From a virus, in the IMG/VR virus record IMGVR_UViG_3300029286_000020, positions 27,549-91,548 of that record: a DNA stretch of 64,000 nt; one strand, given 5' to 3'. Shown here piece by piece: positions 12,412 through 29,997 of this stretch. The first letter of the stretch is position 1. Each line of letters begins with the position of its first letter. Under the pieces are notes generated by a model, which was given only the letters and a program-made list of their open reading frames with translations, did no database searches and was not told the DNA's origin. The position numbers were made by a program, and so were the translations under genes.

Positions 12412-14076
12412 TCAGCCTTTGATACCAGCCAAAGCGCGAACTCGATCGAGGCTGATTCCAAGACCCTGCCAGTTTTGGCCTTCGGCCATGGTCCGGCGGG
12501 TCCGGGGAGCTTCGGTCTCTTCCGAGATTTCCGTCGGCGTGCGCTCGACGCCGCCGTTCATACGGCCACGGATGCGGGCGCGGACCGACTGGAGGTCGTC
12601 CTCGTCACGCTCAACTTCGCGCTCACTCTCCACGAGGGAGTCAACCGCTCGGCGAGAGGACGGACGGGTGCTCTCCACGAGGCCACGGAGCTTGGTCGCC
12701 TTCGGATGGCTGGCAAGACGCTCCTCCGCGTAGAGGCGTGTCTCCAGTTCCTTTGTCGAACGCTTGGCTTCGGCGAGGTCATCTTCCAGTTCCAAGCGAA
12801 GGGCCTTCTCTTCGGCCATCTTCTTTTCCATCGCAGCCAACTTGGACTCGACAGCGTCGCGCTGTTTCCGCTCGACCTTCCGAGCCTCTGCGACTTCCTT
12901 GGCCTTGGCTTCCTGCTCGACCTTCTTTGCCTCGGTCTTGCGGCTCATCTCATCCTTGACCTCGGTGACACGCTGCTTGAGCGCATCCGAACTCTCGAAG
13001 CTCTTGAGGTCGCCGACAAGGGTTCGGATGGAGTCGGCGTCGGGGTCGTTGGCAACCATCTTCTCAAGGTAGAAGCGGTAGCCGACTTCCTTGGCCATCT
13101 CAGCGAGAGCCGTGTTTTCCGACTCCAGATCCTTCAGCTTGAGGTCACGTTCCGCCAACTGCTTCTGCAGGTCGCGGATCTCGACGTCCTTGCCACGAAC
13201 GACCTCAGCGGCGTCTTCGGGGAGGAGGTACGGACGGAGGACACCACGCAGAGCTTCCAGCACGGCTTTGGCCTTGCCGATCTCCGGGTCTTCCATCATT
13301 TCCTTCCGCAGTTCATCGCGAACTGCGGCACGGACGGTCGAGAGGTTGTCGAGGATTGCCTTCGCGAAGTCGTCGCGGACATTGCGCGAACCGGAACCCT
13401 GCTTGGCGCCCATCTCACCTTCGATGCGTCGAGCAAACTCCTGAGCCTTCGCCGCATCGCCTTCGAGGGGTGCCTTCTTGGCAACCATCTCAGCCTCGAT
13501 GCGCCGAGCGAACTCAATCGCCTTCTCCTGTTCAGCATCAGCGTCGAACTCCACACCCTCGAACAGGGAGCGGCTTTCGCCCATCACTGGGTAGGCGTCT
13601 TGGTCAGCCGGGTCTGCGACGAAGTCGAAGGTGACCAGCTTGTAGTCATCCTGCACGATGTCGTTCCCGCTCTCGTTGGTCTTGACGCTGCCGAAGCCAC
13701 GGCTGGAAACGCCAACGGGGACGTTCGACTTGAGGAGCGCGAGAAGGTTCTTCCCTGCCTCGGTCGGCATGATCTCCGCCTCACCGATCACGAGCCCGTC
13801 CTTGACGGAGAGGTCCGTGATGATGTGCGAGACGCGGGACAGCTTGGTCTGGCCATCGCTGGGATGGTCGATCTCGCCCATGACCCTGCGTTCCTTGAGA
13901 GCCTTGCCGAGCCGCTTCAGCTCCTTCTCCCAAACACCCTTCGGGTAGACGCGCTTGTTCTCGGTGGCGATGCCGCATTTGGCAAACTCACCTCGAACTT
14001 TGACGCGGCCACCCTCGCCTCCCTCAGCAAGAGAGAGGCGCACAATGGAAACGTCGCTCAGAAGTGGCTTGGTCAT
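12412..14076 (-). CDS. Prohead protease (gp21-like) fused to a coiled-coil scaffold domain
   Basis: NKRVYP, GEIDHP, VSHII, GVSSRGFGS, TFDFVADPA, followed by about 380 aa of charged coiled coil. Confidence 0.9.
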   Translation of the reverse strand: MTKPLLSDVSIVRLSLAEGGEGGRVKVRGEFAKCGIATENKRVYPKGVWEKELKRLGKALKERRVMGEIDHPSDGQTKLSRVSHIITDLSVKDGLVIGEAEIMPTEAGKNLLALLKSNVPVGVSSRGFGSVKTNESGNDIVQDDYKLVTFDFVADPADQDAYPVMGESRSLFEGVEFDADAEQEKAIEFARRIEAEMVAKKAPLEGDAAKAQEFARRIEGEMGAKQGSGSRNVRDDFAKAILDNLSTVRAAVRDELRKEMMEDPEIGKAKAVLEALRGVLRPYLLPEDAAEVVRGKDVEIRDLQKQLAERDLKLKDLESENTALAEMAKEVGYRFYLEKMVANDPDADSIRTLVGDLKSFESSDALKQRVTEVKDEMSRKTEAKKVEQEAKAKEVAEARKVERKQRDAVESKLAAMEKKMAEEKALRLELEDDLAEAKRSTKELETRLYAEERLASHPKATKLRGLVESTRPSSRRAVDSLVESEREVERDEDDLQSVRARIRGRMNGGVERTPTEISEETEAPRTRRTMAEGQNWQGLGISLDRVRALAGIKG

Positions 14077-14279
14077 CAGTACCGTCTCCAGCGGAAGTTG
14101 CTTCGGAAAGGGGTCCGGGCCAGTTGGCCGGAGTCCTTCTTTTGCACCTTCCGTGCTTTGCGTCGAAAGGGGTTCAGGTCTCGTTTTTCAGCGCCGATCA
14201 GCTCACGTCTCCCGCTGGAGTACGAGGCACGACGATTCCGCCATGCCTCCTCCGTCGAGGACGAGTTCAGTCGTTTCCC
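14076..14279 (-). other. Putative -1 programmed ribosomal frameshift site (G_GGA_AAC at 14279-14273) and 65-aa basic extension
   Basis: Slippery heptamer one codon before the stop; the -1 frame stays open for 66 codons to TGA 14078-14076, which overlaps the protease ATG. Confidence 0.65.
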
Positions 14280-14944
14280 GAGGTCTCTTCGACCTCTTCT
14301 TCGTCTTCGTCTTCGTTGTTGTCCTCGTAGAGGTCAACGGCGTCGAGGATGGTCTCCATCCCCTCGGCAAAGGCAGCGGCGACGTCCTCAGCGGACTCTT
14401 CGAGCTTGCCTTCGCTCATCGCGGTGGCGATGTCGGCGAATGACTCAGCAATCTCGCTGAGTTCACCAACAAGGCTGGCGAACATGCGCTCGTCGCTGGC
14501 CTCGTACTCGTCGGCCTTCACCCACTCGGTGAAGATGCCAGCCAGCTTATCGGCGATGATGGCTGCGTTGGCGAACGACTTGAGGGTCTCGTTGGCGTCG
14601 ACAGCCTCTTGGCGCGTGCCCTTCTGGATCGCCTTGGCCGTGACCTTCGCCATGCGGCGCTGGCCCTTGGCGGACCGACGCATCTTGGCCTGCTTGCGAG
14701 CGGACTTCTTGCCGCTCGCCGAACGGCGCTGCTTCTTCGCGGCGAGGCGGTCAGCCATCGACGTCTTCTGCTGCTTGACCTTCTTGCCACCGCGCAGAGC
14801 GAACTTGATGCGGCCCGCCTCGTCGAGCACCTCTTCCTCTTCCTCCTTCGGAGCAACCGGAGCGGGGGTCGGAGCGGACTCACGGATGAGTCCGATCTTG
14901 CGGAAGTCTTCTTCAAGGGTGGTGACAACGATCTGGTTTCGCAT
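14267..14944 (-). CDS. Putative prohead core protein (basic segment plus acidic tail, gp68/gp67-like)
   Basis: Between portal and protease; Lys/Arg-rich middle, Glu/Asp tail, several L/I-x-E sites. Confidence 0.65.
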   Translation of the reverse strand: MRNQIVVTTLEEDFRKIGLIRESAPTPAPVAPKEEEEEVLDEAGRIKFALRGGKKVKQQKTSMADRLAAKKQRRSASGKKSARKQAKMRRSAKGQRRMAKVTAKAIQKGTRQEAVDANETLKSFANAAIIADKLAGIFTEWVKADEYEASDERMFASLVGELSEIAESFADIATAMSEGKLEESAEDVAAAFAEGMETILDAVDLYEDNNEDEDEEEVEETSGND

Positions 14945-14964: not shown

Positions 14965-15885
14965 TCAAGTGAGACGCGCAACTGTTTTCGCCACGAAGGC
15001 ACCGGCAACCTCGAATGAGGTTACTTCGGAAGCGACAGAATCGAACACCTTGGCGATCCGGTCAACAGAACCGAACTCAGCCACAGCCTCAACCACGAAC
15101 TCTCGCACTTGAGTCACATCGGAAAGAAGGTCCGACGCGAACGCCTCCAGAGAGGTGATCGCCTCTTCCCCGCCTTCCTGAATCGCCTGCTCTCGGACGA
15201 GGCGGATGGCGTGCAGCGCCGATGTTGTGCTCGCTTCGACCGCCGACAGGCGGGAAAGGAGGTGCGCAACATCGTCTTGGACGAGCGCTTTGAAGGTGTC
15301 CATCTCAGCTTGTGCTGTGGACCCGTCGTAGAGTCGCCCGAACTTCGGCGCCATAGGCGCTGGAAGTTTGTCCTCACCGAGGAACTTCTGAACCTTGTCA
15401 GCACGTTCGCTCAAGGTGGTCTTCCACAGAAGACCTTCACGGCTCTCTGCAAAGGACTTCAGGATGTCCTCGTCCGTCACAGACGAAGCTTGATCGACCA
15501 ACGGAGCGAGCGCCACGATTTTTTCGTTGGCTTGGTCGACGAGCCCGCGCAAGAACAGGTCGGCTGCAGCGCGCGCTTCCTGTCGGATGAACCGATGCAG
15601 GTTCTTCTCAGTCACGACCGTGAGGTCAACGTCACTCGTCCCGGTGAAGTAGACCTCACCAGACTCGCTCAAAGCGTACTTGACCCGGACCAACTCAGCT
15701 TCGCCGACGAGGGCAACGATGAAGCTTGGGAAAACTCCAAGCAGCTGGGCCGACTGTCCTGCAAAGAGCTTGGAAGCTTCAGTGCGGAGGGCTGAAGTGA
15801 CCCGAGCAGTCGTGTCCTGAAAAGAACCTGCCAAAAGTTGGGCAAGTTCAATCGAAGGAACAAAAGGAAGGACGCTGCGGGTCAT
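14965..15885 (-). CDS. Hypothetical head-module protein
   Basis: 306-aa ORF between the portal and core genes. Confidence 0.7.
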   Translation of the reverse strand: MTRSVLPFVPSIELAQLLAGSFQDTTARVTSALRTEASKLFAGQSAQLLGVFPSFIVALVGEAELVRVKYALSESGEVYFTGTSDVDLTVVTEKNLHRFIRQEARAAADLFLRGLVDQANEKIVALAPLVDQASSVTDEDILKSFAESREGLLWKTTLSERADKVQKFLGEDKLPAPMAPKFGRLYDGSTAQAEMDTFKALVQDDVAHLLSRLSAVEASTTSALHAIRLVREQAIQEGGEEAITSLEAFASDLLSDVTQVREFVVEAVAEFGSVDRIAKVFDSVASEVTSFEVAGAFVAKTVARLT

Positions 15886-22895: not shown

Positions 22896-24350
22896 TTAGC
22901 CCTGCTTTGACTCAGGGACAGCATCGATGCCCGGGTCTTCAGTTCCTTCACCCGGCTTGAACGTCGGAGCCGTCTTTGCCAGCTGTTCAGCCTCCCACTT
23001 GGTCGCTGCAGCGTAGAGTGCGAGCAGAGCCTCGGCGGTCATCGGCTTCTTCATCGACTCCTCCATCCAGTTCGGGTTGCCGACCGTGTCGTTCCCCGCC
23101 TGAGCAAACATCTGCTTCGGAGCAGTCGGATCCGTCACGTTAACAACAATCGCCGATGAGGCTTCAGGGGCCAGTTCAGCGAACGACGCAGGCAGCTTGA
23201 TGCGGGCGGCTGGGAAGATTTCCGGTTTCACGAAGCGTCCGAAGCGCACCCCTCGGTCTTCGGCCCTGATCCGGACCGCATCCAAGCCTGTCATATCGTC
23301 GGTGTCGCGAACATGGGCGAGGACGAGTTTGACGTCGTAGCCCTTCGATCGAGCCTCCTTGATGACACCCTTGTAGTAGGCCGTCGATGTGCCCACCCCG
23401 TCGAGCAGGAAGGGGTAGTACTCCCCGGGGCTATCAGGGTCTTCCGACATCGCGAGGTCAATGGCAGTGTCGTTGAGGTTCGATACCTCGCTGTGCGTGA
23501 TGATGGCACCGTTGCGGGCCTTCGTCGCCACCGCCGCTTGGTATTCCGGCAGCTTGGTGCGGTGCGCGTCCGCGTCGAGCACAGCCAGTTCGTCGGGGTT
23601 CTCCGCGAGGTAGCGCGCCAGCGTGCTCTTCCCGCTGGCTGGCATGCCCATCGTGATGACCGCTACAGGATTCCGCACGCGCTTCTTCCCTCGGAAGACG
23701 TCGTCCAGAATCGTTTTGTGCAGACGTTGGCGCTCTGAGGTCAGGACTCCGTCAGGCGTAGTGTGCGCCTTGAGCGTGTCCGTTGGCAGGTCTGGGTTGG
23801 CGTCGGTCCACTCCATCCCCGCACCGAGATGTAGCCACGATCCGTTCGGCTGTTTCTTGAACCAAGAGTCGCGCGACGCCCAGAAGTGAACCGTACCGAC
23901 CGGAGCTTCCTCCCCTCGGGCCTCGTCGAAGTCGAACACGACGGGGGTGACACTCTCGTTCTGGGCGCTTGGAGGCCCGTACTCCTGCGCGTAGGTCTCT
24001 GGCACCTCTGCGGCGTGCAACACAAGGTAGACGTCGCCCTGAGTTTTCAAAGAGGCCAGAGTCGCGTCGGAGAGACCGAACCGATCAGGGTGCTGTCGAA
24101 CCATGTCCACGGTGACTGGGGTGAATGTGAGCTGGTTTCCGTCGGCACTGATCGCCGTAACCACGCCGTCAGGATGCTTCTTCAGGTCCCGCATTGGGAT
24201 GTCGAAGTCAGTCTTCGGTGCTTCGTCAGATTGCCAGAAGTGCCAGACACTGAGCCCAGCCTCGGTTCCCCGGTCGGAGGCCCCGCTCAAAACAAGCCGA
24301 TCCAACCAGTCGCCAGACGTCAGCCAATAGGACGTGAAGTAGTCGAACAT
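22896..24350 (-). CDS. Zeta-toxin-like P-loop kinase with unknown N-terminal domain
   Basis: GMPASGKST, LDADAHRTKLPEY, HSE, LLDG, GYDV, R...R...GRFV motif series. Confidence 0.8.
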   Translation of the reverse strand: MFDYFTSYWLTSGDWLDRLVLSGASDRGTEAGLSVWHFWQSDEAPKTDFDIPMRDLKKHPDGVVTAISADGNQLTFTPVTVDMVRQHPDRFGLSDATLASLKTQGDVYLVLHAAEVPETYAQEYGPPSAQNESVTPVVFDFDEARGEEAPVGTVHFWASRDSWFKKQPNGSWLHLGAGMEWTDANPDLPTDTLKAHTTPDGVLTSERQRLHKTILDDVFRGKKRVRNPVAVITMGMPASGKSTLARYLAENPDELAVLDADAHRTKLPEYQAAVATKARNGAIITHSEVSNLNDTAIDLAMSEDPDSPGEYYPFLLDGVGTSTAYYKGVIKEARSKGYDVKLVLAHVRDTDDMTGLDAVRIRAEDRGVRFGRFVKPEIFPAARIKLPASFAELAPEASSAIVVNVTDPTAPKQMFAQAGNDTVGNPNWMEESMKKPMTAEALLALYAAATKWEAEQLAKTAPTFKPGEGTEDPGIDAVPESKQG

Positions 24351-27300
24351 CAGTAGCCCGCCGGTTTCAAGTGGTCCGTGTAGAAATCATCCGAGTGGAC
24401 CACAAGGTCTTCGACCGGCATGCCATTGAAGTCCGTCACACCGGCTGCCTTCAACCCAGCGATGACTTGATTCCGGGCGGTCGCCGACTGCGTTCGGATC
24501 TTGATGACCTTGTTCGGGCTGAAGCCGTGGCGAAACATCATCTCTGTCTTGCCCTGCGTACTGGAACTTTCGAGAGGTTGGCGATTGTCGAAGGGTGTCC
24601 CAGACGTCTTTCCGTAGTTGTCGCCGCTATGCGTAAACACGTCCAAGCGGTCCAGTTCACTCGGGTCAACAACCATCTGAATTTCACCCCACGCGAAGTC
24701 TTTGTTGTCCTCCAATCCGGGCTTGGTGAACAGGTAGTCCGCGCCGCCAGTATTGATGTCGGCGGACCCACTGGTCGTCCCTGACGTTGGGATGCCGAGC
24801 TGCAAGCGGTCACCGACTGCAATGGACCCGCTGAGAAGGTGTTTCACCACCTTGTCGACGCTGCCAAAGCCGTGACGGACGTACTTCATCTTCGGATTGG
24901 CTGCCAAAATCTTCTTCGACCTCCCGGGAAGCACCGGCACCACGCGTCCATTGAAGCCGACCTTCTCCAAGCGGATCGAGTTCAACTCCGCGTCCGTGTA
25001 GCCATTCTTCTTCAAGATGGCGCGCAGGTTTTCCGATGTCCGCCCCTTCTCAGGGAGAGAGTTGGACAGTTGAGGAGCGACGGCCCACAGCATGGAGGAG
25101 AGTTTCATGACGTCCAGATCGTCCTTCGACGGTGGAGTCATCACAGCCTTGCCAACTGCAGGGTTGGCCGTAATCAACAGCCCTTCGAGGGCGTCCTCCA
25201 CGGACTGCCCAGCTTTCGGATACACGTCCGCAACAACCATCCCAAGGAACGTGCGTTGTCCGTTTTCGCCTGTTCCCATAGACAGCTGACTGTCTCCGCT
25301 GGTCCACTTCCTCGTCTCAAACGTGCCGCCAGACAGTTTTCCACCGCTCTCGACCCAAGTGTCGGTCGCAGGGTCGTAAGACATCTTCGGGTAATCGAAC
25401 TCGCTCGCGGTCCCTCCGGTCATCTTATTCTGTGCCGCTTCACGCAGCTTGAAGGACACGCGGTAGAACGTCTTGCCCTTCGCGTCCTTGTGACGCTGCA
25501 CCATCATTGAGTTGTGCTCGACCATGTTGCCGTCGGCGATCATGACCTTTCCGAGCGACAGCTTGGCTTTCTCGATGTTCTTGATGAGAGCGACTGTCTC
25601 CTTCTGCTCGTCAAGCACAACGTTCTTGAGGACACCGGGCTTGGGCACCACCGTGCCTTTGCCCGATGGCGGAGGCGCCGCCGGAGGGAGGTCGACCAGA
25701 ACACTGATGTTCTTGCCAGACGCCTGCCCTTTGGCCAGTTCAGTCTTCGGCATCATGGCAATGACGAATTCGCCCTTCACCTTCAGGCTCAGCGGCGTCA
25801 AGCCGAGTTGCTTCAGGGACTCCTCAGCTTCAGATAGCGTCAGGTTCTTCAGCTTGACGATGACGTTCTCAGAGGCGCCGTCAGGGGCGCCGTCGGGGCC
25901 CTTCGGTGGCTTGGTCTTGTAGAAGTTGCCGTCTGGCCCGGTCGAGAAGAAGGTACTTCCCGACTTGACACTCCACATCTTGCCCTTCGGCGGATCCGAG
26001 TATCCCCACGGATTCGGCGGAGCGACCGGAGCGACCGGAGCCTGTGCGTTTGCAGGGCTGTAGAGGTCTACGCCGGAAGCACCGAGTTTTCCTGTCTTGG
26101 TCACGTCAACTTCGAGTTGAGGCTGGACGCCTGAGACAGGCGCTGCCGGGGGAGCCGCAGGTGCCGTGACACCCGTCCCGTCGTCCCAACCACCTGCAAA
26201 CGTGAAGGTGCCCTTCTTCTTCGTTCGCTTCGCGTAGAGCCCGCCGATGAACGACTCGAAGTCCTTGCGGATGTTCTGCTTGCGCGCGAGCGCAAGGTCG
26301 AGGAACTCCGCGACCTTCTTCGGGTCGTCTTTGAACTTGGCCTCGCTGGCAAACTTCGAGAGAAGTTGCGTGTAGTCACTGTCGCTGATGGCTTCGATGC
26401 GCTCGATCGCACCAGTCATCTCCTTCGGGTCGAAGGACATCGAGCCGTCAGCGAACGCCTTCCAGAACTTGTTGTAGTAGGGTTCGTTTTCGACTTTGTT
26501 CGGGTGGTAGTCGATTGCGAGCTTGTCACCGTCAGCCGATTCGGCGGTGCCGGGCAGCATGAACTTGAAGCCCTGCTCCTTGTCGACGGAAAGTAGTGCC
26601 CCGTCAGGACGACGAACAAAGTTTGCTGCGTGCGTATCGTGCTGCGACATCAACCAGTCGAGGGCGTGCTCCTCAGCAACGTCCTTCCGCTCACTGTCCG
26701 TCAGAAGCGAAGGGTTCGTCCCTGCAGCGCCGAGAGGCGTGGCACCTGCCATCCAAGGCTGGATCGAGGCGGGGATGCCTTTGTAGCCTTCGGGGACATT
26801 GCCCACAGGAATAGACTTCCCGGGCCGAACGACGCTGGAGACCTGAGAGAACATCTCCTGCGCTGCGATGCGGAAAGGCTCGATCTTCGCCTTGTTCTTC
26901 GACCGGGCCAACTTGACGAGGTACTTCCCGTCCGGACCTGCGAAGAAGAACTTCTCGCCCGCTCCTCCAATACCAGAGGCTGCACCCTCCGGTACGAGAG
27001 AGCTGATGGACGGTAGCTGGGGCGGTGACAGGATACTGCCCATCGGAGGAACCGAGATCCCCCCGAGGTCTTTCTTCTTCTTCTTCCCCGCCTTTGTGGC
27101 GAGAGAGACCTTACCAGCCTCGAACTCGAACGTGTCGGTCATGCCGATGTCGCCGCGTTCCTGAAACACGCCGGTGAGGAAGGCTTCCAAGTCCTTCCTC
27201 ACGTTCTTCTTGCGCTTGAGGATCTCGTCCTTGAGCACAGTCAGCTCTTTCGGAGAGCCACCCTTGGCACCGAGGTAGGGACCGAGGTTCGCGAGCCAAG

Positions 27301-29188
27301 CATCGTCAGAGATGTCCTCGATCTTCTCGATTGCAGGAAGCATGGCGCTGACCGGCAGGTCAACTTTCTTCTTCTTGAAGAGGTCGAACAGCGCTCCGTA
27401 AATCAGAGGTGATGGGTTCGGCTTGTACGTCGTGTCGAGGCTGTCTTTGCCGATGAACTTGAGAGCTTGATCCTTGTCAATCCCAACAACGTTGCCGTCA
27501 TTGGTGAGCATGAAGTTCGCAGCCTTCGCGTCGTGACTGGCAAGGGCCCAGTCAAGGACGCGCTCCTTCATCAGCCGCGCGAGTTGGTCGGGAGTCAACG
27601 TCGTCAGGTCAACCTTGCTGAGGTCGGTCTTGATGTTCGGGATCATCGGCTGAACGGATCCTGATCCAACACCGCTCACAGTTCCAACAGCAACAGGGAT
27701 GGCGCCTTCCGCGCCGAAAACCTTGGCAGCGATATTCGCGTAGGCAGCAGCGGCGAGCGCAGGAGCATTCGCGCCCGTTTTGAAGAGGAAGGTGTTTCCT
27801 GCTGCATCTTTGACGAACTGCTTTGGATGCGCTCCACCCAACGAAGCCTTTGCGTCACCGACGAGAGACAAGGTCGTCAGAGGCGGGATGGCAGGCAAGC
27901 CCAGACCTCCCGATGTGACGGGAGCGGTCTGGGTTGCGGTCGGTGTCGTTGTGGTGGGAGCAGGCGGGGCTGCCCGGGGAGTCTTAGGCCCCTTGAGGAT
28001 GACAACCACCCTGAACGCTTGTCCGACAAGGGCGGATGTGTCGGCAGCGTGAATGCCGTCGAGCCACCACTTCCCACCGATCTTCTCGAAGGTGAACCCT
28101 TTGGGGTTCTGAATCGTGACGCCTTCCTGCCCATTGTTCAGGTCCGCAAGGTTGAAGGTCACGAAACCGGGCGGGGCCGGAGAGGTGGCAGGAGGCGTCG
28201 GAAGAGAGATTGCGGCCACAGGGGCAGGGGTCGGAAGCGGGACCGGAGCTGCAGGAGCAGGAGCCGGTGTCAGCATTGGTGATGCAGCCATCGGCTTGAA
28301 CTTCACAACGTCGATGTCGTCGTCGTCTTCGTCCGACGTGACATTGACGAGACCAGCTTTCTTGGCTGAGGCAATCGCCTTGTTGACCGTCTTCGCGGCT
28401 TTCGCAAAGTCGTCTTCGGAGGCGTCGTCACCCCCGGCCAAGGCAACAGTCGCGTCAACGTCGTTGCCGTGCTTGTGCAGCGACTCCAGCGCCTTGAACT
28501 CCATTGATCCGGGCGCGAAGTTTAGGATCTTCGCCGCGTTTGCAACCTCAGGCGCAACCGGGTTCAACCCGGGAACAGCGAAGCCAAGCGCAGCGGCCTG
28601 CGCCTTCCAGTTTGCTCCGTAGACCTTCAGCAGCACCGAAGTGACCTGTGGGTTCTTCAGCAGCTTGAGGTCGGTCGTCGGGTCTTGACCGAATTGGACC
28701 GCGTGAAGGTAGGCGTCCAGCGGAACAGACGCTGTTCCGCCGAGCGCAGCCTGCACATCAGCCTTCGTGATCGCCTGTGGCGACACAGGGGCGGCAGGAC
28801 CGGGGCTGGGCTGAGGTACCGGCGCCGATGCAGGCTGCAGGTCGTGGAGGGGCTCCGCCGCGCTCGACTGGCCTTCCTTCGTCAGCACGTCCTTCAGGGT
28901 CTTGTTCAGATCCTTCAGGATGAGGTCGGTCGCCGCCTTGTAATGCTTCGGGATCTCCCCGATGACTGTGTTCGCCAGAGGCGTCCCCGGCTCCGGGTCT
29001 ACAAGGTCGTCGATGTACTTGAAGACATTCGCGTGCTTGATGTGGACGGGAACGAGGCCGAGGCTCTTGTTCCCGTCCTTGTGTTTGTACGCGTAGACGA
29101 ACTTCGGAGTGATCCGAAACGCAGAGGCTTCCGCCAGAGCTACGGCTTCAAGCAGCGACATCGCCTGCTTCGGACTGGAGTCGGTCAT
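24350..29188 (-). CDS. 1612-aa polyvalent protein: two HipA/PI3K-like kinase domains plus a C-terminal putative ADP-ribosyltransferase-like domain
   Basis: GGAHPK..FLFK...LDWALASHDAKAANF...IDKDQ and GGAGEK..YLVK...LDWLMSQHDTHAANF...VDKEQ; C-terminal RH...GGADYLF...TEMMF; Pro/Ala linkers. Confidence 0.7.
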   Translation of the reverse strand: MTDSSPKQAMSLLEAVALAEASAFRITPKFVYAYKHKDGNKSLGLVPVHIKHANVFKYIDDLVDPEPGTPLANTVIGEIPKHYKAATDLILKDLNKTLKDVLTKEGQSSAAEPLHDLQPASAPVPQPSPGPAAPVSPQAITKADVQAALGGTASVPLDAYLHAVQFGQDPTTDLKLLKNPQVTSVLLKVYGANWKAQAAALGFAVPGLNPVAPEVANAAKILNFAPGSMEFKALESLHKHGNDVDATVALAGGDDASEDDFAKAAKTVNKAIASAKKAGLVNVTSDEDDDDIDVVKFKPMAASPMLTPAPAPAAPVPLPTPAPVAAISLPTPPATSPAPPGFVTFNLADLNNGQEGVTIQNPKGFTFEKIGGKWWLDGIHAADTSALVGQAFRVVVILKGPKTPRAAPPAPTTTTPTATQTAPVTSGGLGLPAIPPLTTLSLVGDAKASLGGAHPKQFVKDAAGNTFLFKTGANAPALAAAAYANIAAKVFGAEGAIPVAVGTVSGVGSGSVQPMIPNIKTDLSKVDLTTLTPDQLARLMKERVLDWALASHDAKAANFMLTNDGNVVGIDKDQALKFIGKDSLDTTYKPNPSPLIYGALFDLFKKKKVDLPVSAMLPAIEKIEDISDDAWLANLGPYLGAKGGSPKELTVLKDEILKRKKNVRKDLEAFLTGVFQERGDIGMTDTFEFEAGKVSLATKAGKKKKKDLGGISVPPMGSILSPPQLPSISSLVPEGAASGIGGAGEKFFFAGPDGKYLVKLARSKNKAKIEPFRIAAQEMFSQVSSVVRPGKSIPVGNVPEGYKGIPASIQPWMAGATPLGAAGTNPSLLTDSERKDVAEEHALDWLMSQHDTHAANFVRRPDGALLSVDKEQGFKFMLPGTAESADGDKLAIDYHPNKVENEPYYNKFWKAFADGSMSFDPKEMTGAIERIEAISDSDYTQLLSKFASEAKFKDDPKKVAEFLDLALARKQNIRKDFESFIGGLYAKRTKKKGTFTFAGGWDDGTGVTAPAAPPAAPVSGVQPQLEVDVTKTGKLGASGVDLYSPANAQAPVAPVAPPNPWGYSDPPKGKMWSVKSGSTFFSTGPDGNFYKTKPPKGPDGAPDGASENVIVKLKNLTLSEAEESLKQLGLTPLSLKVKGEFVIAMMPKTELAKGQASGKNISVLVDLPPAAPPPSGKGTVVPKPGVLKNVVLDEQKETVALIKNIEKAKLSLGKVMIADGNMVEHNSMMVQRHKDAKGKTFYRVSFKLREAAQNKMTGGTASEFDYPKMSYDPATDTWVESGGKLSGGTFETRKWTSGDSQLSMGTGENGQRTFLGMVVADVYPKAGQSVEDALEGLLITANPAVGKAVMTPPSKDDLDVMKLSSMLWAVAPQLSNSLPEKGRTSENLRAILKKNGYTDAELNSIRLEKVGFNGRVVPVLPGRSKKILAANPKMKYVRHGFGSVDKVVKHLLSGSIAVGDRLQLGIPTSGTTSGSADINTGGADYLFTKPGLEDNKDFAWGEIQMVVDPSELDRLDVFTHSGDNYGKTSGTPFDNRQPLESSSTQGKTEMMFRHGFSPNKVIKIRTQSATARNQVIAGLKAAGVTDFNGMPVEDLVVHSDDFYTDHLKPAGY

Positions 29189-29229
29189 GCGAGCCTCAGG
29201 CGAACGTGGTGAACGGAACCGTATGGTCC

Positions 29230-29997
29230 TCAGGCCAGCTCAAAGCCACCAATCTCAGGGTCCTCTTCAACCGCAAGCGCGATCTCGATGCCCTTCGACT
29301 TGGCCTCGTACTTCTCCTTCGCACGGGCGCGGGCGATCAGCTCGACGGCGCGACGGTTGATGCCTTGCGTCCTGCCGAACAGTGGGTTGGCCGAGTCGCG
29401 AGCGTCGAAGCAGGCGTCGATGAGCGCCTTCTTCTCGGAGTCGGTCAGCTCACCATTCTCCAACCCAATCTTCTTCGCCGCATCGCGAAGGAGCTTCTGA
29501 GCGCGAGCCGACTTGTTCAGGAAGTCCTTCACCGATGGCCCAAGGCCCTTGGCCGTGAAGGCGATGCCATCAGCGATGTCCTTGTCGGTCATCGTCTTGA
29601 TGTCGACGCTGCTCGACTTCTTCCCGACGGAGGGCGTCACCTTGTAGAGATCCCACGCCAGCGCGAGGCTGTAGAACGCTTGACGGGCCTCGGCGAAGGG
29701 CCCGTAGATGCCGTCGACAGCGTGCTTCATCTTCAGGCAGGCGGATTCGGTGTCCATCGCGGCCCGCTTCGCGGCAATGCCGCCGTCCGCGATGGCTGCC
29801 TCTTCGGCAAACTTGGCCACCTTCGCCGCAGCCTCCTCCAAGTCGTCCCCGGACTTCACAGCTTCGCGGAAGCCATTCGCCGCCTTGAGAGCGTCCCCCG
29901 GGATGTCCGTGCTGGCTCCAGCGTCCTTGACTCCCTTGGACTTCGCAGCCTCAAGGATGGAGCGGGTCTGATCGGCGAGGCGCTTGAGGTCGGACAT
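29230..29997 (-). CDS. Hypothetical helical protein, possible head-internal protein
   Basis: SD AGGAG; N-terminus MSDLKRLADQTRSILEA resembles a prohead-protease-cleaved leader. Confidence 0.65.
   Translation of the reverse strand: MSDLKRLADQTRSILEAAKSKGVKDAGASTDIPGDALKAANGFREAVKSGDDLEEAAAKVAKFAEEAAIADGGIAAKRAAMDTESACLKMKHAVDGIYGPFAEARQAFYSLALAWDLYKVTPSVGKKSSSVDIKTMTDKDIADGIAFTAKGLGPSVKDFLNKSARAQKLLRDAAKKIGLENGELTDSEKKALIDACFDARDSANPLFGRTQGINRRAVELIARARAKEKYEAKSKGIEIALAVEEDPEIGGFELA

Follow-up and report, generated by a model that had tools for sequence, protein, structure and literature searches.

A giant phage protein with two kinase-like domains and a DarT-like ADP-ribosyltransferase as a candidate head-packaged effector

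Head-packaged ADP-ribosyltransferases (ARTs) and polyvalent proteins are established concepts in phage biology (PMC5512222, PMC9503650). N-terminal propeptides are cut off gp23, Alt and the internal proteins by the gp21 protease of the T4 phage; the cleavage sites of related proteases likewise follow a Glu, and a propeptide often has several of them (PMC5694885); capsid targeting sequences have been reviewed (PMC3012670). Here, we analysed a window of 64,000 nucleotides (positions 27,549 to 91,548) of the IMG/VR virus record IMGVR_UViG_3300029286_000020. An open reading frame (ORF) of this window encodes a giant protein of 1612 amino acids (aa) with two kinase-like domains and a C-terminal ART domain. 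It is preceded by the gene of a 255-aa protein and followed by that of a 484-aa protein with a zeta-toxin-like kinase. Judging from the conservation and gene context of these proteins, we consider that the giant protein is, on balance, probably a multi-effector that is packaged in the phage head and enters the host by injection.

The Alt protein of T4 belongs to the Alt/VIP2 family of ARTs (PMC9503650). The system of the window resembles that of Alt in its Gp23-type capsid and S77 protease, a leader at the N-terminus with L-x-E at its end, an ART and presumed co-injection with DNA. Alt is an R-S-E-type enzyme that modifies RNA polymerase. Unlike in Alt, the predicted ART described here is DarT-like and is a part of a 1612-aa protein with two putative kinases and a dedicated partner gene.

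The polyvalent proteins and MuF polymorphic toxins (Iyer et al. 2017, PMC5512222; Jamet et al. 2017, PMC5576092) resemble the giant protein in that at least two effector domains, here two kinases and an ART, are carried on one phage polypeptide. The distant homologues of the giant protein are Phage_Mu_F fusions with a small gene directly 3', and such proteins are known to carry zeta-like as well as RelA/SpoT-type domains as cargo. The window protein differs in having a protease-site leader in place of MuF. The ARTs reported for polyvalent proteins belong to the Tox-ART-HYD2 clade (H, Y, D) and their kinase clade has no C-terminal lobe (PMC5512222), whereas the ART of the window is DarT-like and its kinase keeps a helical C-lobe. 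Kinases are not mentioned by Jamet et al. (PMC5576092). A literature search, incomplete and thus no proof of absence, found no described DarT-like or PI4K-like packaged phage effector, nor this combination. The features that differ from the described systems are a kinase family that has no Pfam model and keeps the C-lobe, a DarT-like ART, a protease-site leader instead of MuF, and a partner family with Zeta or RelA/SpoT tails.

Tandem kinase-like domains of two types

According to the original prediction, which was made from the letters of the window, the 1612-aa ORF contains two homologous domains with a HipA/PI3-PI4-kinase-like pattern. The BLASTP comparison of aa 447-690 with aa 720-1000 bore out the homology (E 4e-22, 31% identity over 162 aa). 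The predicted elements of the pattern, namely the Gly-rich loop, the beta3 Lys, HDxxxxN and (I/V)D, were found to be the most conserved columns of the family, and both copies of the window retain the beta3 Lys, the D-x-x-x-x-N loop and the metal-binding Asp. In the alignments of 16, 68, 77 (d1-type) and 152 (d2-type) sequences, the beta3 Lys, HDxxxxN and (I/V)DK(D/E)Q were invariant or at least 90% conserved.

The AlphaFold2 model of domain 2, for which the 68-sequence alignment was the input, had a predicted local distance difference test score (pLDDT) of 95.9. In the Foldseek search with this model, the top matches were all kinases, led by HipT, a toxin of the HipA family, which agrees with the predicted pattern. 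The VIA-align comparison gave PI4KIIalpha at Z 14.9 (231 aa, root-mean-square deviation (rmsd) 3.8), CtkA of H. pylori at Z 14.4, actin-fragmin kinase at Z 12.5, PI3K/mTOR/ATM at Z ~11 and HipT at Z 10.8. A Z of at least 5 was reached by 995 of the 1000 re-aligned chains, and all those listed were kinases.

The domains of the window thus share with PI4KIIalpha, CtkA, actin-fragmin kinase and HipA/HipT the bilobal fold (Z 10.8-14.9), the beta3 Lys, the D-x-x-x-x-N loop and the metal-binding Asp. They differ from these kinases in that the identity is only ~10-13% and the family has its own motifs, LDW...SQHD, VDKEQ and RKxxxRxDFExF, as well as the tandem arrangement. Unlike HipA/HipT, they have no HipB/HipS partner at the locus of the window. 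In the search of PDB sequences with phmmer and two domain profiles, the kinase domains matched no entry. A few relatives of the window protein gave sub-threshold matches to HipA_C (E 0.002-0.01) and PI3_PI4_kinase (E 0.003-0.036).

The two copies represent distinct types, each conserved separately: H-D-x-K-x-x-N in d1 and H-D-x-H-x-x-N in d2. The d1 type has a Lys two positions after the catalytic Asp, as in Ser/Thr protein kinases; the d2 type has a His there, as in PI3K/PI4K, and its D-x-H-x-x-N recalls their DRHxxN loop. As judged from these alignments, the two types are ancient, diverged copies. In the d1 copy, the helix that follows beta3 has no Q-E pair. The possibility that domain 1 is a pseudokinase was considered and rejected, as the catalytic Lys, the D..N pair and the Asp are conserved over 77 orthologous copies; these d1-type sequences keep the beta3 Lys, GIDKEQ and the HD..N loop. 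Both kinases look active, and the difference between the loops (D-x-K versus D-x-H) suggests two substrates.

The kinase family is large. In an exhaustive search, 1266 cluster representatives (50% identity) matched domain 2 at E <= 1e-3, and most of them were proteins of 1000-7700 residues. Of 167 proteins gathered in the searches, at least 65 had two or more kinase copies. The word-index search with domain 2 alone among proteins of 154-492 aa gave no decisive match, and given this length window it was a weak test. The domain recurs together with ARTs of two different families, and this recurrence points to a functional coupling of kinase and ART.

The second of these ART families is seen in the mycobacteriophage proteins McProf gp54 and Onyinye gp16, both annotated as fusions of a minor capsid protein with an ADP-ribosyltransferase. 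An unannotated homologue of the kinase (~29-32% identity, E to 1e-18) lies in them between the VG15 head domain and the C-terminal ART, and a small gene follows 3'. The gene of McProf gp54 is located directly after the portal gene, and that of Onyinye gp16 just before the terminase gene. These proteins differ from the giant protein in that their ART is of the exoenzyme type (Pfam ADPrib_exo_Tox) and the downstream gene is unrelated to the partner domain described below.

A C-terminal ART domain that resembles DarT

The homologues of the ART module were collected by local tblastn on the fetched loci, in place of a back-translated pattern search that had been undecisive. The model of aa 1190-1612, obtained with an alignment of 41 sequences, had a pLDDT of 92.6. 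When it was compared by VIA-align with 48,161 PDB representatives, only four chains reached a Z of at least 8, and all of them were DarT: 7omu (11.7), 8baq (11.7), 7omv (10.1) and 7yk3 (9.3). The matches to DarT span model residues 233-416, that is, residues 1422-1605 of the protein, and the best alignments cover 147-154 residues with an rmsd of 3.4-4.0 and ~10% identity. They were followed by tRNA 2'-phosphotransferase (Tpt1; Z 7.5), then by further ART matches at Z 5.6-6.6 (7dn9, a Salmonella effector with NAD and ARF1; CopC; OspC3), and then by the classical ART toxins. DarT1 was also the top match in Foldseek (E 1.1e-3, target TM-score 0.57). The Foldseek comparison of predicted domain structures, which the original prediction had proposed as a check, thus gave a kinase fold with HipT on top and an ART fold with DarT1 on top. 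Pfam DarT was matched below the threshold in 3 of the 41 homologues (E >= 0.003). According to the model, the C-terminal domain is an ART fold closest to DarT.

An ART with an H...Y...E arrangement had been predicted for this region. The fold, on the PARP/DarT (H-Y-E-related) side of the ARTs, and the Glu stood: E1549, the Glu of TEMMF, is kept in 41 of the 41 sequences and in the model opens a strand that a long loop precedes. The canonical H-Y-E triad at the predicted positions had to be rejected, since H1439 is kept in 8 and Y1485 in 3 of the 41. The invariant residues are R1461, D1477, R1514, D1516, D1523 and E1549. DarT1 itself deviates from H-Y-E, as it has a dispensable Ser at the position of the Tyr and relies on Arg, Asp and Glu residues (PMC11543638); those of DarT are E152, R52 and D54 (PMC11543638). 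The domain thus resembles the DarT of DarTG in its fold (best structural match, Z 11.7), and its invariant Glu and the invariant Arg/Asp in the region of the NAD loop may correspond to residues of the DarT active site. It differs in having no DarG macrodomain or NADAR neighbour, a different small partner family occupying that place, in being phage-borne and in being embedded in a giant protein.

Since the closest folds are those of DarT, and since the neighbouring modules are of nucleic-acid-binding types (helical, Rho_N-type), the ART most likely acts, by analogy, on host nucleic acid or on a protein bound to nucleic acid. The segment preceding it, aa 1190-1421, gave only weak matches in VIA-align (Z ~4), to chaperone/YbjN-like and helix-turn-helix-like chains, and its domains are conserved together with the ART in 84 loci.

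In BFVD, weak to moderate matches of the ART model were found among uncharacterised proteins of giant eukaryotic viruses (Tupanvirus, Pithovirus, Klosneuvirus, iridovirus 422L, granulovirus ORF30/32) and of the Bacillus phage SP-15. The baculovirus/iridovirus ORF28 family has been linked to DarT (PMC9503650).

Leaders, the prohead protease and the partner gene

The original prediction had also pointed out leaders that resemble T4 gp21 cleavage sites in the giant protein (LLEA and LAEA) and in the 255-aa protein (ILEA). They are present and conserved in the homologues. In about 23 of the 30 leader-type homologues of the giant protein, L-x-E-A stands directly before a conserved block (EASAFRITP and variants). 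The N-termini of this family diverge both in sequence and in length, and nearly all of them have L-x-E-A at about residue 15-40, even where the N-terminal domain is unrelated. Homologues of the 255-aa protein from nine related loci all have a leader of 15-20 aa that ends in L-x-E-A/T/Q directly before the conserved body. In the first 48 residues of the other ORFs of these loci, the loose motif was found in 14% and L-x-E-A in 3.9%. Similar N-terminal sites were seen in the major capsid protein (MCP) and the protease of the same genome; the site of the protease is LAE|G.

The distant homologues, of ~1120 aa, consist of Phage_Mu_F, a kinase, a Rho_N-like motif and then the same C-terminal ART module. 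Phage_Mu_F was found in all seven of the ~1120-aa homologues tested (above the Pfam cut-off in four of them) and also in P0036; it is absent from the window protein (Pfam). Meanwhile, Peptidase_S77 was present in 5/5 genomes of the leader type and in 0/5 genomes of the MuF type, of which four are at least 93% complete. It follows from this co-occurrence of S77 with leaders and of its absence with MuF that the same cargo changes its presumed capsid address along with the system of head maturation. MuF fusion is an accepted mark of head-packaged effectors (PMC9503650). We infer the packaging of the giant protein from three independent lines of comparison: the conserved leaders, their co-occurrence with S77 and the MuF fusion of the same module. 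The genomes of the leader-type lineage are large (~125-185 kb), have T4-like heads and encode replication machinery of their own, and the giant gene belongs to their syntenic core. Among the MuF-type records, one is classed as a provirus.

Three further observations were made on these proteins. The Rho_N-like (SAP/HeH-type) motif lies between the kinase and the ART module in six of the seven MuF-type proteins (L053, L060, L077, L082, L085, L087, L092) and hints at nucleic-acid binding. The S77 protease ORF of the window has 554 aa, as against ~200 residues of the catalytic domain, and (L/V/M)-x-E-(A/G/S) sites are numerous in its C-terminal part; this suggests that the protease is fused to a scaffold and is cleaved itself. 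Two ORFs located between the portal and the protease genes (14267-14944 and 14965-15885, both on the minus strand) have several sites of the L-x-E type, e.g., LDEA at residue 40, and are likely to encode head-core or scaffold proteins.

The zeta-like P-loop kinase that had been predicted downstream of the giant gene was recovered by Pfam in aa 222-407 of the 484-aa protein (Zeta_toxin, E 1.7e-17, 64 bits against a cut-off of 22.3 bits). By phmmer, its matches were zeta (1gvn_B) at E 1.3e-5 and PezT at E 5e-4, and in both the alignment included GMPASGKS (Walker A) and LDADAHR (DxD). The domain is thus like Zeta/PezT in its Pfam match and in its Walker A and Asp motifs. It is unlike them in having no epsilon/PezA-like antitoxin, in standing behind a domain that is the partner of the ART and in being replaced by RelA_SpoT in a relative. 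In the upstream position, where an epsilon/PezA-type antitoxin gene was looked for, the giant gene is found, and the neighbouring genes matched no antitoxin family in Pfam, PHROGs or PADLOC. Zeta and PezT are UDP-GlcNAc kinases of epsilon-zeta systems; for some zeta-like kinases, the phosphate acceptor is another nucleotide, e.g., NAD.

In almost every locus, the gene directly 3' of the giant gene, which often overlaps its stop, encodes a protein of 120-160 residues. These proteins are homologous to aa ~25-125 of the zeta protein of the window, and we call this region the partner domain. The profile built for it matched 49 of the 2973 six-frame ORFs, all on the coding strand; 48 of them begin 6-210 nt past the stop of the ART gene, the MuF-type loci included. 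The same profile did not match the genes 3' of exoenzyme-type ARTs in mycobacteriophages, so the partner tracks the DarT-like module and not the kinase. Most partner proteins have no C-terminal tail. Where there is one, it is either Zeta_toxin, as in the window and in five relatives, or RelA_SpoT, as in a single locus (L038:8591-9784 of IMGVR_UViG_3300033153_002993; Pfam E 1.4e-18). In a close relative (L027:8832-9263), the partner is a stand-alone protein of 143 aa without a toxin tail, followed by the polymerase gene; the zeta domain is therefore an add-on. As seen in these genes, the tail of the partner is exchangeable between two families of nucleotide-directed toxins, Zeta and RelA/SpoT.

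These results qualify two points of the original prediction. The zeta kinase and the overlap of its gene with the giant gene were confirmed, but the domain is an accessory, swappable tail that occurs in a minority of loci, and the zeta gene was accordingly dismissed as the core partner. The absence of an adjacent antitoxin held for HipB/HipS and epsilon/PezA, but an immunity- or adaptor-like partner domain is fused to the zeta kinase. No zeta domain was fused into the giant proteins elsewhere among the 167 homologues collected. The partner (aa 1-205 of the 484-aa protein and the 143-aa form of L027) had no Pfam match, which set aside a macrodomain or NADAR as candidates, and the ESM Atlas gave no lead for it. 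Its layout makes it a candidate both for the cognate immunity gene of a toxin and for a carrier with exchangeable toxin tips; a partner that remains attached to the ART could fill both roles.

The following course of events is proposed. The giant and the 255-aa proteins would join the prohead core through their leaders, be trimmed by the S77 protease after L-x-E and leave the capsid together with the DNA. In the new cell, the two kinases, with their different catalytic-loop chemistry, and the DarT-like ART would act on host targets, and the modification of host nucleic acid or of a nucleic-acid-bound protein by the ART could shut down the host or disarm its defence. The translationally coupled partner would serve as an inhibitor or immunity protein in the producing cell and stay bound to the ART. 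In this bound state, it might ferry an exchangeable toxin domain into the capsid, zeta-like here and a RelA/SpoT-type pyrophosphokinase in a relative.

Genome context and competing explanations

The positions of the features are given in Table 1. The viral contig, including the window, has 91.5 kb, an estimated completeness of 54% and a G+C content of ~60%. In the direction of transcription, the long run of genes on the minus strand is ordered as follows: replication genes (helicases, primase, recombinase, exonuclease, resolvase), the ParB-like nuclease, the 255-aa protein, the giant protein, the 484-aa zeta protein, a family-A DNA polymerase, and then TerL, the portal, the protease and the MCP. 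The predicted ORFs and their one-base overlap at 24350 were found as claimed, the stop of the giant gene and the start of the zeta gene sharing one base in TGATG. The sequence GAGG is located 6 nt upstream of the ATG of the giant gene. The order of ParB, giant gene and polymerase is kept across the leader-type lineage, and the 255-aa protein and the zeta domain each occur in a part of it. The MCP, whose gene adjoins that of the protease, matches Pfam Gp23 (E 1.3e-72), and its identity does not exceed ~35-38% with any record.

The scans of the giant protein with Pfam, PHROGs and PADLOC gave nothing decisive. No match was found for the 255-aa protein in Pfam, PHROGs or PADLOC; aa 21-300 of the giant protein had neither a Pfam match nor a lead in the ESM Atlas, and aa 1060-1165 matched Pfam PASTA below the cut-off (E 0.034).

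Table 1. Genes and domains of the locus, with positions in the window.
Feature	Positions	Strand	Basis or remark
255-aa protein, candidate second head-internal protein; leader ending I-L-E|A (aa 14-17)	29230..29997	-	Leader common to homologues
Giant protein, ORF of 1612 aa	24350-29188	-	
Giant-protein leader, aa 1-20, with candidate protease sites LLE|A and LAE|A	29129..29188	-	Motif before conserved block in homologues
N-terminal conserved region of giant protein, aa 21-300	28289..29128	-	Kept in closer homologues only
Kinase-like domain 1 (d1 type), aa 447-690, H-D-x-K-x-x-N	27119..27850	-	Paralogue of domain 2
Kinase-like domain 2 (d2 type), aa 720-1000, H-D-x-H-x-x-N	26189..27031	-	AlphaFold2 model, Foldseek, VIA-align
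Middle region, aa 1060-1165	25694..26011	-	Conserved in many homologues; weak PASTA-like match
Beta-rich and small helical domain, aa 1190-1421, always before the ART	24926..25621	-	Confident model
DarT-like ART domain, aa 1422-1605	24374..24925	-	VIA-align, Foldseek, conservation
Zeta protein, ORF of 484 aa	22896-24350	-	
Partner domain (484-aa protein, aa ~20-130), candidate for an immunity protein, an adaptor or both	23961..24293	-	Profile and synteny
Zeta-toxin-like P-loop kinase, aa 222-407 of the 484-aa protein	23130..23687	-	Pfam Zeta_toxin
Prohead protease of T4 gp21 type, presumed leader-cutting enzyme	12412..14076	-	Pfam Peptidase_S77 E 3.6e-17, PHROG 207

Several points weigh against the reading of the giant protein as a packaged and injected multi-effector. 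The strongest argument against packaging is that virion association is a prediction from genes and that the gene lies beside replication genes, between those of the ParB-like nuclease and the DNA polymerase, outside the head module. A cargo of 170 kDa is large for a capsid-targeting leader, although Alt of T4 reaches 76 kDa. The role of L-x-E-A could be structural, without any cleavage; the motif is missing from a few homologues of the giant protein, although their start-codon calls are uncertain, and the zeta protein has no L-x-E leader. As to the domains, Pfam HipA_C and PI3_PI4_kinase had no match in the window protein, and for Pfam DarT (PF14487) the window protein gave none, nor did the six-frame translation of the genome when searched at E <= 10. 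The putative catalytic Glu, E1549, was picked from conservation and secondary structure, and position 1489 is Lys in the window protein as against Arg in 32 of the 41 homologues. By megablast, the region matched nothing in the phage collection and no cultured relative is close; by tblastn, only the kinase domain of the giant protein was matched, in mycobacteriophages.

Some of these points would suit a protein that acts inside the infected cell without being packaged, for take-over or counter-defence, like ModA/ModB of T4 or the gp0.7 kinase of T7, its leader having no role in the capsid. The location among the replication genes, the indirect evidence of virion association and the chance occurrence of the loose leader motif in 14% of ORFs speak for such a protein. 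However, the leader is conserved over divergent N-termini and co-varies with the S77 protease, and where the protease is absent, its place is taken by the MuF fusions, the accepted signature of head packaging (PMC9503650). We therefore regard an unpackaged protein as unlikely, although worth keeping in mind. The partner gene raises a further alternative, namely that of a toxin-immunity cassette for superinfection exclusion, abortive infection or killing between phages or bacteria after the fashion of MuF polymorphic toxins, in which the ART and zeta would be the toxins and the partner the immunity protein. A toxin gene followed by a small cognate gene, often overlapping, in 49 loci fits this, as do the swappable Zeta and RelA_SpoT tails that resemble polymorphic toxin tips; one MuF-type record is a provirus, and MuF polymorphic toxins of temperate phages have been described (PMC5576092). 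Set against this, the giant gene of the leader-type lineage is part of the syntenic core of large genomes (~125-185 kb) that have T4-like heads and their own replication genes, which is atypical for temperate elements. A cassette is also compatible with delivery by the capsid and thus overlaps with the packaged multi-effector; as an explanation in its own right, it seems to us quite unlikely.

The giant protein might instead be mainly structural or replicative, e.g., a component of the head core, an ejection conduit or a DNA-associated factor acting with ParB and the polymerase, and its enzyme-like domains would then be inactive or regulatory. Its long Pro/Ala-rich linkers, the several domains without an assigned fold and the conserved position beside replication genes could be taken in this way. 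However, the catalytic residues of both kinases and the Glu/Arg/Asp set of the ART are invariant or nearly so over deep divergence, which argues for selection on enzymatic function, and a protein of this kind is very improbable.

A more specific form of the packaged multi-effector reading can also be put forward, although we hold it to be doubtful. The locus would encode a three-part injected weapon, widespread in uncultured phages and so far undescribed: a DarT-like ART directed at host nucleic acid, by which a toxin of defence would have become one of phage attack, one or two dedicated atypical kinases, and an immunity and adaptor partner with zeta or RelA/SpoT. Its kinases may make activation of the ART depend on the presence of ATP, or may share its target. 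The partner would protect the producing cell and would also dock interchangeable nucleotide-kinase toxins, which themselves need no targeting signal, into the capsid.

DarT is a bacterial toxin that halts phages by ADP-ribosylating their DNA. The finding of a DarT-like enzyme in an apparent phage-delivered cargo suggests that phages use the same chemistry against their hosts. The kinase domain represents a large family without a Pfam model, with 1266 clusters at 50% identity and proteins of up to 7700 residues, and its probable coupling to ARTs has so far been unstudied. Among cultured systems, McProf gp54 and Onyinye gp16 lend themselves best to work on this kinase. The swap between leader and MuF is a clean natural experiment on how phage cargo is addressed to the capsid, and the partner, whose zeta or RelA/SpoT tail can be exchanged, suggests that toxins may be packaged piggy-back.

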